The translations under genes and the position numbers were made by a program. A model generated the notes under the pieces. It was not told the origin of the DNA. It saw only the letters and a list, made by a program, of their open reading frames with translations, and made no database searches. Source: a virus. Taken from it: DNA of 5,669 nt. Positions within the stretch are counted from its first letter, which is position 1. Every line of letters starts with the position of its first letter. The stretch is from positions 1 to 5,669 of the IMG/VR virus record IMGVR_UViG_3300045988_000381. One strand, 5' to 3'. Positions 1-5,669 of the stretch are shown here, piece after piece.

Positions 1-70
1 ATTTTTTTTCAAGGAGGCGTTTTAGTGATTCTTCGGGCTGGTCTCGTATATTCCATGTTTTGTGCATCAT
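1..70 (-). CDS. Duplicate copy of the 5' part (first 23 codons) of the 75-aa ORF annotated at 5423..5650; an artefact of the circular overlap, not a separate gene
   Basis: ATG at 70..68 corresponds to 5650..5648. The SD AAAGGAA (GG at 81..80) lies 8 nt upstream, in unique sequence 71..90. Confidence 0.6.
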   Translation of the reverse strand, partial: MMHKTWNIRDQPEESLKRLLEKK

Positions 71-89
71 TGTTGTGTTCCTTTCCAGG
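1..89. repeat. Terminal redundancy, copy 1 (identical to 5581..5669); overlap of a circular contig
   Basis: Base-by-base comparison shows 1..89 equals 5581..5669. The repeat falls inside an ORF rather than flanking an element. Confidence 0.95.
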
Positions 90-108
90 TCGGTTGTCAT
101 TCGTTTGA

Positions 109-213
109 TTAGTGCTTGTCGTGTAGCACGTGATAGATCTGGTCCAGTTTTTCCAGGATCTCGCGCATTACTGCAATTGCAGCTTTCAGGTCTTTGATGG
201 TTATTAGTGCCAT
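109..213 (-). CDS. Hypothetical 34-aa protein (MALITIKDLKAAIAVMREILEKLDQIYHVLHDKH), translationally coupled to the peptidase gene
   Basis: Hand translation gives ATG 213..211 and TAA 111..109. A strong SD, AAGGGGG (G-run 225..221), sits 7 nt upstream inside the last peptidase codons. The peptidase stop (218..216) is 2 nt from this ATG. The ORF is below the ORF-track length cutoff, and I recognise no family. Confidence 0.5.
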   Translation of the reverse strand: MALITIKDLKAAIAVMREILEKLDQIYHVLHDKH

Positions 214-215
214 TT

Positions 216-608
216 TTACACCCCCTTTCTGTATGTTTTGGTACGTGTGTCGATGTGTACCCATGTATTGTATACGATTATGCCACATCCAAGTGGAATG
301 ATTTTGTTCAGTTTGTTGGCAATTTCTTTTGCGGTCATGCCTCCAATCCGAATGTCTGCCGCCATTCCTCGCATGTGGTATGAGTACTTTGCACCACCTA
401 CCTCTTTATTCCTTGTCGGCGTCCTGTATCCGCTGTTTATGTATACCGGTTTTCCGACTTGGTTTCTAAGGATATCTAGAATGGATACTAAATAGTCATC
501 GATGAAAACTACTTGCGAACCGTCTTTGCACGCAAATTCTCGTACTTTGAAGTGCTGCCCTACTTTTTCATTTGCGTCTGTATCCATGATATAGCATTTG
601 ATCGCCAT
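216..608 (-). CDS. Zinc D-Ala-D-Ala carboxypeptidase-fold peptidoglycan hydrolase, Peptidase_M15_3-like (probable endolysin), 130 aa
   Basis: Signature SGYRTPTRNKEVGGAKYSYHMRGMAADI followed by WVHIDTR, matching the M15 H-x6-D ... H-x-D metal-ligand pattern (H78, D85, H118). SD GAGAGG (622..617) lies 8 nt before the ATG. There is no N-terminal signal peptide or transmembrane segment. Confidence 0.85.
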   Translation of the reverse strand: MAIKCYIMDTDANEKVGQHFKVREFACKDGSQVVFIDDYLVSILDILRNQVGKPVYINSGYRTPTRNKEVGGAKYSYHMRGMAADIRIGGMTAKEIANKLNKIIPLGCGIIVYNTWVHIDTRTKTYRKGV

Positions 609-632
609 GATGTTTACCTCTCTTCGTTTCGT

Positions 633-661
633 ATTTTACCATTTTTTTAATTGCTTGTCAA
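633..661 (-). promoter_or_regulatory. Near-consensus sigma70/sigmaA promoter with extended -10, driving the peptidase gene and probably the whole genome transcript
   Basis: The minus strand reads TTGACA (661..656), a 17-nt spacer AGCAATTAAAAAAATGG (655..639), then TAAAAT (638..633). TGG immediately before the -10 gives the TGn extended -10. An A-rich UP-like tract CAAACCAAAAAACAA lies just upstream (676..662). The predicted start is near 625..628, leaving a leader of about 18 nt that contains the SD. Confidence 0.7.
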
Positions 662-752
662 TTGTTTTTTGGTTTGAATGGCGCTTTAGCGCCTTGCCGT
701 ATGGAGCGTAGCGGAATTCGGCTTAATCCATTCCTTTTTAGCGCTGTGCGCG

Positions 753-791
753 TTTTCAACACTTTCAACACTTTCAACAGGTTTTCAACAA
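753..791. repeat. Iteron cluster A: four copies of TTTCAACA (TGTTGAAA on the coding strand)
   Basis: Exact octamers start at 754, 763, 772 and 783, with spacing 9, 9 and 11 nt. Segment 761..791 is identical to 825..855. Confidence 0.9.
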
Positions 792-824
792 AATGTTGCA
801 CAATGATTTTCGTCATTTTGACGG

Positions 825-866
825 ACTTTCAACACTTTCAACAGGTTTTCAACAATTTTTTCAACG
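825..866. repeat. Iteron cluster B: three copies of TTTCAACA plus one TTTCAACG
   Basis: Octamers start at 827, 836, 847 and 859, with spacing 9, 11 and 12 nt. Segment 825..855 is a perfect 31-bp copy of 761..791, offset by 64 nt. Confidence 0.9.
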
Positions 867-962
867 CTGTTTTTTGCTTGTTTTTAACGTATTATCTTTA
901 TAAATTTATATTTTTTAACTTTTCCACGTACTCTACTACTACGTCTACAACAAGTTAATATA

Positions 963-1008
963 ATATACGCGTGCATGCGTGCGCGTTACGTGCGCGCGTG
1001 CGCGCGTA
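963..1008. repeat. CG-rich alternating purine-pyrimidine tract (24 + 22 nt, one phase shift at T986/T987) with three copies of CGTGCGCG; Z-DNA-prone and hairpin-forming
   Basis: Perfect Pu-Py alternation over 963..986 and Py-Pu over 987..1008. CGTGCGCG occurs at 978..985, 989..996 and 997..1004. Positions 966..985 pair with 989..1008 (16 Watson-Crick pairs plus 4 G.T). Confidence 0.8.
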
Positions 1009-1012
1009 GAGT

Positions 1013-1046
1013 CTAGCCCAGTCCTACTTGATAGGTACTGGGCTAG
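1013..1046. other. Stable stem-loop 10 nt downstream of the VP4 stop (14 bp, one bulge, 5-nt loop); candidate replication or priming signal, or a transcript 3' end structure
   Basis: CTAGCCCAGT (1013..1022) pairs with ACTGGGCTAG (1037..1046). The inner CCTA (1023..1026) pairs with TAGG (1032..1035). T1036 is bulged and the loop is CTTGA (1027..1031). Confidence 0.75.
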
Positions 1047-1055
1047 GTGACACCA

Positions 1056-2075
1056 TTAGAGTGTTCCTTTCTTCTTCGTTTGCTTCTTGATCACCCTTTC
1101 TTTTGTCTTGCATTGCTCTGCAAAGTCTGCATTTTCATACTTTAGCCGGCTTTCTGCTATGGCTGCTGTTTGTCTGTTTTGTTTGATTCTCCATAGCCTT
1201 TGTGGGTTTTCGGTTTCCATCATTTTTTCATAATAACGTGGAATTTGTGCGTGTTTTCCGTTTGTACATTGGATGTATCCTTGTCTCCATATTTTTTCTT
1301 TGTGCTCTTGGTAATAGTGGTCTCCCAGTCCTGGTTTCAGGCTCATACATGCGAACGGCTTTTGTTGGCCTAGTTCGTAGTATTGGTTTGCTTTCTTTCC
1401 GTCTATTTCGTACATTTTTTTCGTGACGTATCCCGCAACATATCTGTATGTTTCTGGTACTGCTTGTGCTATCTGTATTTGACCCATGCCCCATAGATCT
1501 GTTAGCCATTTACTTTTGAAGTATCCGTTGTGTTGTATCTTGTACAGGTGTTTCAGGTCTGTTGGTTTCCATCCATACAATATCATGTGGTAGTGCGGTC
1601 TCGCTGTCTGTTCTCCATACTCTCCCGCTATAAAATAGCGTAATTTGCCCCTGTAAGCCTTTCTGAGACGTTTTAGGAACTTTTGAACGTCAGTATATAG
1701 TAACGTTTGTACGCTTTCAGGCGTTTTTTCTCCCGGCTTCCAGACGTATTGCACTTTTCGCATGAGTTCACCTGTTTTGATGATCATACCTGGTACATGG
1801 TCATCATCATACGTTAGCGTTATAAACCATACTTCTTCTTCTGGATAGTCTCGTGCTTCTAATTCTATACGTGTTGCCCAGTCCTCTCTTTGTCTTATTC
1901 TGCATCCGATGCACTGCCCGCATGGTATCAACATTACATCTTTTCGAAACATTAGGTCTTCATATTTTACCTGTCTTCCCGCTAACTGAGAATAGCGGGA
2001 GAGTGAATACACCCTCCCGCTAATGTCTTTGTCGTTAGGGTTGTACAGCCGTATTAACGGTTTGTAACAACTCAT
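1056..2075 (-). CDS. VP4: Replication initiator protein VP4 (HUH rolling-circle endonuclease, phiX174 gpA-like), 339 aa
   Basis: Motifs present are FITLTY, the HUH motif [10 protein letters not shown], and the double-tyrosine motif YVAGYVTKK (as I recall it, phiX174 gpA has YVAKYVNK). The Cys cluster CGQCIGCR is typical of gokushovirus VP4. The ATGA overlap with the VP2 stop spans 2075..2072. Confidence 0.93.
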
Positions 2076-2965
2076 TTCAGATAGTCACCCGGCTTTCTCT
2101 TTTCTCCATATGATCCTGTTTTGTCTTGTGGTTTCATTTCTCGGCTTTCTCCTGTTTTTGGCTTGTTTCTTCCAGCGCCTCCGGCCGCTCCCGGCACTGT
2201 GTCTTCTGTCTTTTGCATTTGCTTGTATGTTTTGAGTAAATCTTCTGTTAGTTGTTTTGGGCTGCTGTAGCTTGTGCTCATTTGGCTTCCCACGGCTTCA
2301 GCGAGTTGATACCATTGGCTTTGGCTTTCTGATTTGCTGTAATAGCTGTTTGGTACGTTGCCTGACATTGTTGACACGCCCAGTGCACTTGCTGATGGCA
2401 TTCCCATGCTTGCACCTGTAATGGTTGCGCCTGCTCCGCCCGGCGTGCTTGCTCCACCTTGTGCGTATGCTAGGATAGGGTTTAAGCCTGCTTTTTTCAT
2501 GTCTTCTACAGCTCTTTGATAGCTTGTGTTGCTCATGCGCTCTTGGAACTGCCTGTTTGCTAGCGCTTCTGCGCTGTTGTAGTTCATTGCCGCATTTTGC
2601 TCGATATGGTTATAAATGCCCTGCTGGATTGCTCCTAACGTATTATAACCCATCTGGAGTAACATATTTTGGCGGTTTGTTTTGCTCTGGAAGTCGTTTT
2701 GACCGCCTTGCCAATTATAGAATTGTTTTAGGTATTCTTGAATCTGCTGGTCATTAGTTCCACCTTCGCTACTGCTGCTGCTTTGTCCTCCCCCTTGGCT
2801 TTGGCTTTGGTTGAACCCTTGGCTTTGGCTTTGGCTTTGCTGTCCGTATAGTCCTTGAAGGCCTTTTCCTGCTAAGGTCATTGCTCCTGTGATCAGTTGC
2901 GGATTTGCTGCTGCCCATTGTAAGCCTTTTGCAGCTATTCCGCCGATTGTTGATAGTACTCCCAT
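2072..2965 (-). CDS. VP2: Minor capsid / DNA pilot protein VP2, 297 aa
   Basis: Contains the gokushovirus VP2 motif [20 protein letters not shown]. The N-terminus is Gly/Ala-rich, followed by an SQ low-complexity linker. The gene sits between VP1 and VP4. Confidence 0.85.
2792..2840 (-). repeat. Tandem GGCTTT hexamers and a 19-nt direct repeat inside VP2, encoding the (SQ)n/Gly/Ser low-complexity segment
   Basis: CCCTTGGCTTTGGCTTTGG occurs at 2792..2810 and again at 2816..2834, a 24-nt (8-codon) period. It translates to [18 protein letters not shown] (VP2 residues about 43-60). Confidence 0.85.
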
Positions 2966-2993
2966 TTTAAAATAGGCCGGATTTCTCCGGCCT
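2966..2993 (-). terminator. Probable leaky intrinsic terminator between VP1 and VP2
   Basis: The coding strand reads AGGCCGGA-GAAA-TCCGGCCT (stem 2993..2986 / 2981..2974, 8 bp, GNRA loop), followed by ATTTTAAAA. The U-run is only 4 nt, so partial termination is expected. Confidence 0.55.
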
Positions 2994-2994
2994 T

Positions 2995-3000
2995 CCTCCT
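2995..3000 (-). promoter_or_regulatory. Shine-Dalgarno AGGAGG for VP2, located 5' of the terminator hairpin
   Basis: This is the only SD-like sequence upstream of the VP2 ATG (2965). It is 29 nt away in linear sequence but 9 nt away if the 20-nt hairpin 2974..2993 is folded. Confidence 0.5.
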
Positions 3001-3003
3001 TTC

Positions 3004-4671
3004 TTACAGTTTATACAGCCCAGGTACGCTGTACAACGGCATGCAGCGTGTGGTTTTGTTCGCCACGCGGATTGCTCCGAAGAATTGCGGCTCGTTCTGT
3101 ACGATGAGTGTTCTTGCGATTTCGGTTTTTTCTTCTGTCATCCATTCCTGAGACAGTGTTGGTACGGTTTTGTAGTTGTCTGCATAGTGCCAGAAGTCCA
3201 ACGTGCCTGTTGCGTTGCTTCTCATGAGGCCGCTTACTCGGTTGGGCTTCATTCGGTAATCGGCCCATGCTTCCTGATAGCCAAATGTCTCTTCGTCACT
3301 TGACGTGCCAGTTAGCATGATTTCCTTTTTCTTTACCGGCTGTTCGCCGAGGTTTGCAAACTGTGGTACGTAGTAGTCCAGACGGTCTATTCTGCTCCAG
3401 AATCGTTCAAGGCCTTGCTGGTACGTTCTGCTGTGACGTACGCACATGACGCCAATAACAAATCCGTGTTCTTCAAAGCTCTTCGTGAAGGAGCTTTCGT
3501 TGATAGGTGTTACGGACATTGCGCCGGTTTCACCAATTGGCGTATCGTTTGCACTCTGCTGTCCGCTTGTCTGCACGATCTGGTTCATTCCAACTCGATA
3601 TCGTCCACCGCCCAGGTATTCCGGAATCTGTACCGTTTTGTCGCTGATGGTTACATTCCACAGTGTCTGTACCTGTTCACGGTATCTACTGCCGCCTCGT
3701 GCCATTGCTTCATAGTACTGCTGCACTGCAATTGCGTTTCGCAATTCGTTGATGGTTGCTGCTGTGATGCTTCCAAGGTCTGTTCCGAGATATGCCGTTT
3801 CGGTGCTTTGAAGCGAGGTGCTCGATACTATTGCCGGTCTTTTTCCGGCTGTTTCTACCGTATTGTAAATTTCTCCGTTCTGGTACAGTTTGATTGTGTC
3901 TGCTCCAGCCTTTTCTTGGGTCAGTCCGATATCTTCATACAGTTTTACTGCCGCATTGCCTTGCATTGGTAGTGCCACTTCCGGCCCTCGCTGAGGATAA
4001 GGCAAACAGCTCGAAAAGTAGTCGTGGAAACGGTTCACAGGCAGGCAAAAGCCTCCTTTGATTGCGTTTTTCAGAATCGTTTCTAGGCTTACCCCTTCTT
4101 CTGACCCTCCTGTTCCTCCTCCTACCGCAAACTCTTGGTTTGCGCTTTTTGTTTCTAACACTGCTTCATTTTCTACGTTTTGATCTCTGAAAAATTCGTT
4201 CCAGATCTTTACGTATGCTCTTACTGGCAATGCGTTGACGCTGAATGTTCCTTTAACTTTTGTCGGAATTCCCATGTAGTCCAGTATTGTTCGTTCGTAC
4301 GGTTTTGGCTGTTCGTTTGTTCCTTTGATTACGATTTGCGGTACACTGTACGTTGTTGTGGGCATCCATGGCTTATTATCCACTTCCCCCATGAACCGTT
4401 TGAAGTCGTCCCACAGGATACGGTTTGGACAATAGAAGTAGTAGAAATCGATGAAAGCGTCATCCATCACCGGATATTTCGGTGTGGTCATGCGGATGAT
4501 TGCACTCGTATCGATTTGGAATGTGTCTCCCGGCAACACCTCGTCTACAAAGAACGGAATAAGTTTGCCGCTGTCGAATGTGGTCAGAATTGTCTGATCA
4601 CGGTTGAATCGTGTTCGGCTTGTGTGCATCTGCGGCACTTGCAAGAAGTGTCTTTCATTGTTTCTATTCAT
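3004..4671 (-). CDS. VP1: Major capsid protein VP1 (Microviridae F-like capsid protein), 555 aa
   Basis: The N-terminal region [12 protein letters not shown] ... [24 protein letters not shown] matches the conserved microvirus capsid pattern. The size is typical of gokushovirus VP1. SD AAAGGAGTG lies upstream, and the ATGA overlap with the VP3 stop spans 4671..4668. Confidence 0.95.
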
Positions 4672-5066
4672 TCTGCTGTTTCACTCCTTTCTGCTGGTTT
4701 TTCTTCCTGTACTTTGCTCTGTTCTTCCAGCTTTTTGAGCTTCATTGCGTTTACCTGTGCGGTCGCTACCATCTGATGATATTCATGGATGTTCTGCGGC
4801 CATTCGGTCGTGTCCATTTCTACGCCATCCATAGCGCCTTGCGACAGGCTTTTCAGGAATTCCGGGTCGAAACTTGCCTTCCGGACAATGTTTTTGATGT
4901 CGCATTCGTCCGAATAGCTTTCAATTTCCTGCTGGATGTCGATTGGTTCGGTTTCCTGCAGTACTTCCTGGTCTTTTTCGTTCTTCGTCCAGACGTATTG
5001 CCTTCGTTTCTTTTCGCCTGGATTCGAAAAAAAGGGCTCTCGCCCTTTTTCGTATCGTTTATTCAT
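4668..5066 (-). CDS. VP3: Internal scaffolding protein VP3, 132 aa from ATG 5066
   Basis: The conserved scaffold motif SDECDIKNIVRKA is present and the gene lies immediately upstream of VP1. The ORF-track start at 5171 is a TTG codon with no SD and a 113-nt overlap with the upstream gene. ATG 5066..5064 has the SD GGGAGGG (5081..5075) and overlaps the upstream stop as ATGAATAA. Confidence 0.8.
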   Translation of the reverse strand: MNKRYEKGREPFFSNPGEKKRRQYVWTKNEKDQEVLQETEPIDIQQEIESYSDECDIKNIVRKASFDPEFLKSLSQGAMDGVEMDTTEWPQNIHEYHQMVATAQVNAMKLKKLEEQSKVQEEKPAERSETAE

Positions 5067-5298
5067 TTGGTCTGCCCTCCCATACCTTTTCGGTATCGTT
5101 TGTGAACGTTCCAAGCTCGTCTTCGAACGTTGCCAGCTTAAAGCCGGTGTAATCCTCAGGACTCTGCCCAATGAACGTTGCCTTGTCCTTTGCCATCACG
5201 TTGCACATGCGTGCAAAGGTTTCGTTGTTTTTGCTTTCGCCTACCCATGCGTAGCATTTTGCTACGTTGTCCCATACGCCATAGTATTCATGTTTCAT
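5059..5298 (-). CDS. Small non-structural protein, 79 aa, in the position of gokushovirus ORF5/VP5
   Basis: SD AAAGGGA lies 8 nt upstream of ATG 5298. The N-terminal pattern YGVWDNVAKCYAWV...NNETFARM resembles the small protein found between VP4 and VP3 in gokushoviruses. That similarity is from memory and was not searched. Confidence 0.55.
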   Translation of the reverse strand: MKHEYYGVWDNVAKCYAWVGESKNNETFARMCNVMAKDKATFIGQSPEDYTGFKLATFEDELGTFTNDTEKVWEGRPNE

Positions 5299-5316
5299 TA
5301 TATCCGTCCCTTTCTT

Positions 5317-5439
5317 TTACAGCCGGATGCCGCCCCGCATGGGCTTCTGACTGAGGTTGATCGTTTTGGTTTTTCGTGCTGTTACGTTGAACATACGGCG
5401 GTCTTTTGCGCCGTTCATCTTCTTACGATGCTGTGCCAT
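5317..5439 (-). CDS. Small basic DNA-binding/packaging protein (ORF8 / phiX174 J-like), 40 aa: MAQHRKKMNGAKDRRMFNVTARKTKTINLSQKPMRGGIRL
   Basis: Hand translation gives ATG 5439..5437 and TAA 5319..5317. SD AAGGGAG lies 7 nt upstream. The protein has 11 Arg/Lys in 40 residues and a C-terminal MRGGIRL motif, which I recall from small basic proteins of gokushovirus-like genomes. It overlaps the end of the 75-aa ORF by 17 nt and is below the ORF-track cutoff. Confidence 0.7.
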   Translation of the reverse strand: MAQHRKKMNGAKDRRMFNVTARKTKTINLSQKPMRGGIRL

Positions 5440-5650
5440 CGGTGTACTCCCTTCTGATCAGTTCCATTTCGATTGCGTTTGCAAAACTTTTCTCCCGCCA
5501 GATTTCTTCCAGCACAATTTTTGCATCTTCTATGTTGCTTAGCTTTCGTAGCATTTTATATCCAGCGTTGATTTCTTTGTATTTTTTTTCAAGGAGGCGT
5601 TTTAGTGATTCTTCGGGCTGGTCTCGTATATTCCATGTTTTGTGCATCAT
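5423..5650 (-). CDS. Hypothetical 75-aa protein, predicted all-helical, charged, no transmembrane segment; spans the circular junction
   Basis: The ORF begins MMHKTW with an SD AAAGGAA 8 nt upstream (seen in the copy at 71..84). Its 3' end is coupled to the basic-protein gene. I recognise no family. Confidence 0.55.
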   Translation of the reverse strand: MMHKTWNIRDQPEESLKRLLEKKYKEINAGYKMLRKLSNIEDAKIVLEEIWREKSFANAIEMELIRREYTDGTAS

Positions 5651-5669
5651 TGTTGTGTTCCTTTCCAGG
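5581..5669. repeat. Terminal redundancy, copy 2 (identical to 1..89)
   Basis: Same comparison as for copy 1. Confidence 0.95.

Follow-up and report, generated by a model that had tools for sequence, protein, structure and literature searches.

A conserved M15 peptidase, a putative endolysin, without a recognizable membrane partner in a clade of gut gokushoviruses

Introduction

Gokushoviruses are among the most abundant single-stranded DNA (ssDNA) phages of the mammalian gut, and how they lyse their hosts is still not known. The question takes a particular form in IMG/VR record IMGVR_UViG_3300045988_000381, whose positions 1 to 5,669 are the window analyzed here (the whole stretch of DNA, 5669 nucleotides, nt), a complete circular gokushovirus genome with every gene on the minus strand. 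At 216..608 it encodes a 130-amino acid (aa) protein that a sequence-only reading had described as a promoter-proximal zinc peptidase of the M15_3 type, with no recognizable holin, signal peptide, spanin or E-like partner. Is this protein the lysis enzyme, and how would it reach the wall? Like phiX174 E, which inhibits MraY, it would be a lysis function of a small phage without a temporal gene programme; E, however, is a small transmembrane protein devoid of enzymatic activity, whereas here we find an enzyme without a transmembrane protein. We argue that this horizontally acquired M15A/M15_3 peptidase is, on balance, likely to be the endolysin that degrades the wall at lysis in the gokushoviruses of a large clade from the mammalian gut.

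The gene itself is already known, being a widely annotated accessory gene of gut gokushoviruses. M15_3 peptidases were described in five human gokushoviruses and six alpaviruses, with Faecalibacterium-type relatives, and were shown to have been horizontally acquired and proposed to act as endolysins; the same study noted holins adjoining the bacterial and prophage homologues, and one complementary-strand open reading frame (ORF) next to a peptidase (Roux 2012, PLoS One 7:e40418, PMC3394797). The enzymes of these Gokushovirinae and Alpavirinae show no substantive difference from the present one: same Pfam family, a single domain of about 130 aa, and a position between VP4 and VP5. Peptidases have since been noted in metagenomic microviruses (Kirchberger and Ochman 2020, PMC7062461), as the sequence-only reading correctly had it, and constitute one of just two recurrent classes of accessory genes in microviruses (Kirchberger et al. 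2022); peptidases or endolysins are also reported in cultured microviruses of roseobacter, Rhizobium and Sulfitobacter. The only one with reported experimental evidence is Gp7 of Ebor (Tainavirinae), a 146-aa peptidoglycan hydrolase with zymogram activity, present in trace amounts in virions (mBio 2025, PMC11980548, Table 1). Gp7 is a small microviral peptidoglycan hydrolase, as the present enzyme is predicted to be, the two being likened here by description; unlike this genome, Ebor belongs to another subfamily, has a Gram-negative host and encodes a predicted 45-aa membrane protein, Gp1 (PMC11980548). In the literature searched, no paper explicitly takes up the absence of a holin from microviruses with a peptidase, and neither the clade-wide lack of a transmembrane partner nor the conserved promoter is documented there.

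Results

216..608, minus strand: Peptidase_M15_3 (MEROPS M15A-like, LAS fold), putative endolysin, 130 aa (ORF, profile and model)

The 130-aa protein is an intact LAS-fold M15 peptidase. It matches Pfam PF08291 (Peptidase_M15_3) with E=3.1e-22 and 79.2 bits, far above the cut-off of 23.2, over profile positions 2-108 of 108, and PHROGs family phrog_894, "endolysin" (E=1.3e-42). Residues H78 and D85 (H-x6-D) align with the SRHMYGHAAD motif (S-x-H...A-A-D) of the zinc DD-peptidase in PDB entry 1LBU, and an alignment of 51 sequences, reaching down to about 40% identity, shows no variation at S59, R62, N67, S76, H78, D85, H118 or D120. The sequence alignment with 1LBU stops short of H118, whose assignment as third ligand comes from family invariance and the fold match; in the AlphaFold2 model (pLDDT 97.2, pTM 0.90) this residue sits in strand 117-120. 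The placement in M15_3 and the ligand set H78/D85/H118 given by the sequence-only reading are thus both borne out, and the predicted structure is of the LAS (Hedgehog/DD-peptidase) type. Foldseek searches of the PDB with the model returned 1LBU (E=3.6e-5), then VanXY, VanY, ChiX, LdcB and Ply500, as well as LysB4, and in BFVD viral M15 peptidases, comprising tailed-phage and microvirus "peptidase" models, reach TM-scores of 0.93-0.96. The best solved match by both sequence and fold, 1LBU, is the Streptomyces albus G zinc D-Ala-D-Ala carboxypeptidase (M15A), a secreted bacterial enzyme with an added peptidoglycan-binding domain; at 24% identity and a TM-score of 0.63, its substrate specificity is not transferable. 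From its sequence and model, the microviral protein is predicted to cleave peptidoglycan in a zinc-dependent manner. The gene is under purifying selection, with a rough ratio of nonsynonymous to synonymous substitution rates (dN/dS) of about 0.21 over 81 genomes.

Every ORF of at least 17 aa in the six frames of the circularized genome was scanned for membrane segments with a 19-residue Kyte-Doolittle window (KD) and a Hessa-type scale, a KD of about 1.6 being taken as transmembrane grade. None of the 37 sense-strand ORFs contains such a segment, the maximum being 1.27 and the Hessa-type sums at least 7 kcal/mol; nor does any sense-strand frame of the circular genome hold a membrane ORF of the phiX174 E type at this grade. 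The same scan gives 2.5-2.6 for the holin-like ORFs of Faecalibacterium tailed phages and 2.8 for phiX174 E, both positive controls, and 1.40 for the N-terminus of phiX174 H, which is known to insert into the membrane. For a spanin, the scan gave neither a transmembrane segment nor a lipobox-bearing ORF. Hydropathy likewise reveals no signal peptide or signal-anchor-release domain in the peptidase: its N-terminus, MAIKCYIMDTDANEKVGQHFKVREF, is charged and without a hydrophobic core (about 8 charged residues in the first 30), its highest KD, 1.11, falls on an internal strand, and N-terminally extended database variants are hydrophilic. That the enzyme has no holin, signal peptide or E-like partner on the coding strand, as the sequence-only reading had it, therefore holds for this genome and, as detailed below, extends across the clade.

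Of the 77 antisense ORFs with at least 17 aa, 31 reach a KD of 1.6, as expected for a strand that is 37.6% T. Among 80 relatives, 0-1 keep the long antisense ORFs open, whereas real genes are intact in 93-99%. An antisense holin was rejected on these grounds of composition and of conservation below that of real genes, so that a holin or E-like ORF in another frame, for which the earlier reading had allowed, is found neither at transmembrane grade on the sense strand nor with good conservation on the antisense one. The best-conserved antisense candidate, open in 68 of 80 relatives (85%), is a 36-aa ORF at 3041..3151 (plus strand), opposite the conserved 3' end of VP1. It includes 18 consecutive uncharged residues (KD 1.82) and is probably a by-product of VP1 conservation. 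An overprinted ORF within VP1, at 4329..4463 (minus strand), was not counted as a membrane protein either (KD 0.75-1.5, length 27-69 aa). It reads in an alternative frame, starts at VP1 +208 in several genomes and has a Ser/Thr-rich, weakly hydrophobic N-terminus; its peptide mirrors a conserved 11-residue VP1 motif, and it is probably not a gene.

The comparison set of 89 genomes consisted of the window together with eight relatives from GenBank and 80 from IMG/VR (the latter with VP1 70-94% identical). The peptidase is present in 85 of them, the four exceptions being short contigs without terminal repeats, and a sense-strand ORF of at least 17 aa with a KD of at least 1.6 is missing in 87. 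The state without a holin is clade-wide. The two genomes with a transmembrane-grade sense ORF are the distant Dulem virus 195 and an 8.8-kb contig, possibly chimeric. In most of the 89 genomes, the most hydrophobic segment is the N-terminus of the pilot protein VP2 (KD 1.1-1.57), a range in relatives that spans the phiX174 H value. The corresponding segment is the nearest to a membrane segment in this proteome, and we infer, no more than that, that it may take part in enzyme release.

2909..2965, minus strand: Gly/Ala-rich, weakly hydrophobic 19-residue segment at the N-terminus of VP2, KD 0.97

Small hydrophobic ORFs do occur elsewhere. Dulem virus 195 (L010, PP511409), which is distant and peptidase-bearing, has an annotated 35-aa hypothetical protein directly 3' of VP2 (2593-2700), which contains a strong transmembrane segment (KD 2.92). 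Some microviruses may thus pair a peptidase with a membrane protein, as Ebor perhaps does with Gp1. Two peptidase-free gokushoviruses each have a short, strongly hydrophobic sense ORF. That of L100 (KX513873, 1841-1933; KD 2.28) encodes the 30-aa MNEVQLIIKIVTLSLLIADLYMIVKMIRRK and separates the J-like gene from VP5; that of L096 (KT264799, 3972-4046; KD 2.42) has 24 aa. These are possible E-like lysis peptides, and no counterpart of them was found in the peptidase-bearing clade.

The start of the peptidase gene is preceded by expression signals.

633..661, minus strand: sigma-70/sigma-A type promoter, TTGACA-17-TAAAAT with extended -10 TG, by consensus match
617..622, minus strand: Shine-Dalgarno sequence GAGAGG, 8 nt upstream of the peptidase ATG, read from the sequence

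The promoter is the sole 11/12 consensus match in the genome and lies about 25 nt upstream of the peptidase. Since an equally good match arises in 9% of dinucleotide shuffles of the genome, it is by itself only mildly unusual; in 39 of 82 relatives, however, the peptidase ATG is preceded by an exact consensus promoter, at a median distance of 24 nt. The promoter-proximal position of the gene is therefore a retained arrangement. The sequence-only reading had found such early expression odd. Canonical phage endolysins, however, build up harmlessly in the cytoplasm until the membrane is breached, and we know of no early/late transcription switch in microviruses; constitutive, promoter-proximal expression is thus not paradoxical.

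Outside microviruses, the enzyme is most closely related to endolysins of Faecalibacterium tailed phages (41-46% identity along the entire protein). Those of FP_Toutatis, Lelie, FP_oengus and Aster are, like the peptidase here, single-domain M15_3 proteins, of about 134-138 aa and 40-46% identical; yet they belong to classical lysis cassettes, with small ORFs of KD 2.5-2.6 directly downstream, one of them annotated as a holin, whereas the microvirus has none. Faecalibacterium tailed phages are presumably the donor pool of the gene. Other homologues (44-56% identity) are fused to GH25, PG_binding_1, SH3_3, Phage_lysozyme2, NAGPA or dockerin domains or carry signal peptides, which indicates that the family acts beyond the cytoplasmic membrane and makes a substrate in the cytoplasm less likely. 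Within microviruses, proteins annotated as "peptidase M15" in GenBank (Human gut gokushovirus KX513868, KX513876 and KX513877; pig-faeces Microviridae MG945xxx) are 61-91% identical. To judge from the Faecalibacterium phage homologues, the host is probably a monoderm of the Clostridium type, such as Faecalibacterium. For a monoderm host no spanin is expected, and the lack of one, noted in the sequence-only reading, would then be explained.

Two small ORFs follow the peptidase.

109..213, minus strand: 34-aa ORF, MALITIKDLKAAIAVMREILEKLDQIYHVLHDKH, amphipathic helix, Shine-Dalgarno sequence GGGGGTG (conservation, dN/dS)
5423..5650, minus strand: 75-aa orphan ORF, soluble two-helix hairpin, start duplicated at window position 70 (model, database clusters)

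The 34-aa ORF starts 3 nt past the peptidase stop, carries the motif ILEKLDxIYHA and is present in 86 of 89 genomes, yet, of the 36 GenBank records in which tblastn against annotated phage entries located it, nearly all leave it unannotated. Its rough dN/dS of about 0.10 marks the strongest constraint in the module. The peptide has a hydrophobic moment of 0.60, comparable to delta-lysin and melittin; a coiled coil and a membrane-active peptide both fit. The 75-aa ORF, present in 83 of 89 genomes and likewise under purifying selection (rough dN/dS about 0.20), lies directly downstream of the 34-aa ORF once the terminal repeat of the window is removed, which corrects the earlier note. It has no match in Pfam or PHROGs, and all of its 676 database clusters are on microvirus-sized contigs; the model (pLDDT 92) gives a highly charged protein with helices 12-35 and 39-72 and no significant PDB fold match. 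In a distant genome (L011), a divergent copy of the 34-aa ORF also adjoins a peptidase, and we considered whether it had been acquired together with the enzyme, as its adjacency there and in all close relatives would allow. This was rejected: among ten distant gokushoviruses without peptidase (VP1 42-52% identical), the 34-aa ORF is retained in 10/10 and a 75-aa-like ORF in 8/10, with their order and their place ahead of the J-like gene unchanged. Both are real conserved backbone genes of the wider lineage and, being kept where the peptidase is missing, not dedicated partners; control of the enzyme by these downstream ORFs, one of the options of the sequence-only reading, is unlikely as a dedicated mechanism.

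The remaining features of the window are these.

1..89 and 5581..5669, no strand: terminal direct repeat, an exact 89-nt match of both ends
1056..2075, minus strand: VP4/Rep, by profile search
2072..2965, minus strand: VP2 pilot protein, by profile search
3004..4671, minus strand: VP1 capsid protein, by profile search
4668..5171, minus strand: VP3 scaffold protein, by profile search
5059..5298, minus strand: VP5, by profile search
5317..5439, minus strand: 40-aa basic protein, phrog_10695 (E=1e-11), intact in 79/80 relatives

The 89-nt repeat is a circular-assembly overlap, so that the true genome measures 5580 nt; in the raw window, ORFs near the ends are doubled or split by it. With the repeat removed, the sense-strand order is promoter, peptidase, 34-aa ORF, 75-aa ORF, J-like gene, VP5, VP3, VP1, VP2, VP4 and an intergenic region of about 450 nt. 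The 40-aa basic protein is likely a J/VP8-like DNA-binding protein.

In the intergenic region that separates VP4 from the peptidase, TGTTGAAA occurs exactly seven times within 100 nt (754..854, minus strand; expected 0.26), all copies being identical and set inside direct repeats at 761-810 and 825-874. At least 3 copies are found in 69 of 86 clade genomes and 6 of 10 peptidase-free genomes; they look like iterons, perhaps with a role in replication or regulation. A conserved ORF of 48-58 aa, 658..816 (minus strand), overlaps these copies and terminates at the promoter. A perfect 10-bp hairpin (1013-1022 / 1037-1046) comes shortly after the VP4 stop, and beyond it are GC-rich CGTG/CGCG repeats (970-1004). 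Folding of the region 960-1046 as ssDNA gives a z-score of -3.9. Relatives seem to have a hairpin of similar sequence, which may serve as an origin or a terminator. In four other genomes (L004, L005, L006 and L007), the slot between VP4 and the peptidase measures about 370-990 nt and is occupied by short hydrophilic ORFs (54-77 aa) that differ from genome to genome; L005 has a terminator-like hairpin separating the promoter from the peptidase start. This intergenic slot is a hypervariable accessory slot.

Discussion

The scheme we propose for the putative endolysin runs as follows. The peptidase would be transcribed from the adjacent upstream promoter, at the head of an apparently single long transcription unit (small ORFs, VP5, VP3, VP1, VP2 and VP4), and, having no export signal, would build up in the cytoplasm in a soluble and harmless form. 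It would reach the wall only once the cytoplasmic membrane had been breached by something other than a classical holin. As candidates for the breach we rank surplus pilot protein VP2, inserting via its Gly/Ala-rich N-terminus, before the conserved amphipathic 34-aa backbone peptide, and the latter before a non-specific failure of the membrane late in infection. No spanin would be needed, the host being probably monoderm (e.g. Faecalibacterium). Some points weigh against this scheme. VP2 and the 34-aa peptide as triggers are conjecture, and both also occur in peptidase-free gokushoviruses and so are not specific to the enzyme. Among solved structures, those closest to the enzyme act on D-Ala-D-Ala, in some cases in the cytoplasm (VanXY), and hence do not fix the substrate. 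Finally, two scans of bacterial genomes (185,579 species), one using VP1 and one the peptidase and both sensitive to close relatives only, gave no prophage or close homologue that would point to a host.

The closest solved structures also suggest another way of using the enzyme. phiX174 E, Q-beta A2 and M Lys starve wall synthesis by inhibition; the peptidase could do so by hydrolysis, cleaving D-Ala-D-Ala, UDP-MurNAc-pentapeptide or lipid-linked stems from inside the cell, as a single-gene lysis system that requires no export. Such a target would account jointly for the lack of both holin and signal peptide and for an expression that is constitutive and promoter-proximal, and it suits best solved matches that are D-Ala-D-Ala carboxypeptidases and dipeptidases, including cytoplasmic VanXY. 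We nonetheless consider it very improbable: the structural likeness to VanXY is weak (TM-score about 0.45), homologues at 44-56% identity are secreted or fused to wall-binding or muramidase domains, the nearest phage homologues adjoin holin-like ORFs, and no sequence feature sets the microviral copies apart from those endolysins. It is also improbable, if less markedly so, that the 34-aa amphipathic peptide is the membrane-active partner, a holin substitute without a transmembrane segment that served as the ancestral gokushovirus release factor and now serves the peptidase. Its position directly downstream of the enzyme, with a strong Shine-Dalgarno sequence and apparent translational coupling, agrees with this, as do its near-universal presence (86/89, and beside the peptidase in L011), a constraint that is the strongest of the module, a hydrophobic moment in the delta-lysin/melittin range and its retention in peptidase-free gokushoviruses, whose own lysis factor is not known. 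A soluble coiled coil, however, would account just as well for its heptad pattern and zero net charge; the peptide does not go with the peptidase from lineage to lineage, and it has no homologue of known function, which leaves it a candidate only. A truly holin-less lysis in this clade, with the endolysin freed by a factor without transmembrane segment (the 34-aa peptide or VP2) or acting on cytoplasmic wall precursors, seems to us unlikely.

Two further explanations place the enzyme, or its partner, elsewhere. The peptidase might be a virion-associated entry enzyme, packaged in small amounts or carried on the capsid, which opens the wall locally at genome delivery; M15A domains are found inside baseplate or tail proteins of tailed phages (Gp5-type matches), and the trace of Ebor Gp7 in virions is compatible with such a role. 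Yet a 5.6-kb genome leaves little free space in a T=1 capsid, the sequence shows no capsid-targeting or scaffold-like extension, distant gokushoviruses with the same backbone genes do without the peptidase, and the closest homologues are free-standing endolysins of lysis cassettes; we give this explanation little credence. As for a holin or E-like membrane protein hidden on the complementary strand or in an overprinted short ORF, the abundance of antisense ORFs of transmembrane grade (31/77), the complementary-strand ORF reported beside a peptidase (Roux 2012, PMC3394797), the 36-aa antisense ORF open in 68 of 80 relatives, and the small transmembrane ORFs of other microviruses (L010, L096, L100 and Ebor Gp1) all speak for it. 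Against these stand the T content of the antisense strand, from which hydrophobic ORFs are expected, the less consistent opening of antisense ORFs than of real genes (0-1/80 for the long ones) and the absence of any transmembrane-grade sense ORF of at least 17 aa in 87/89 genomes; the chance of a hidden membrane protein appears to us very slight indeed.

Returning to the endolysin as the favored role of the peptidase, our findings sharpen the question of gokushovirus lysis. A clade keeps, in 85 of 89 genomes, a soluble putative endolysin under purifying selection and without a convincing membrane protein, whereas its tailed-phage counterparts adjoin holin-like ORFs. What results is a short list of candidates for the trigger, namely the VP2 N-terminus, the 34-aa peptide and a cytoplasmic substrate, and the question of how the membrane is crossed is narrowed, not solved. 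The homology with endolysins of Faecalibacterium phages supports Gram-positive Clostridia as hosts of these gokushoviruses; to our knowledge, no cultured gokushovirus isolate has such a host range. If true, holin-less lysis, in either of its versions, would be a strategy not yet described for ssDNA phages, and would bear on how gokushoviruses, probably including those that infect Gram-positive gut bacteria, exit their hosts.

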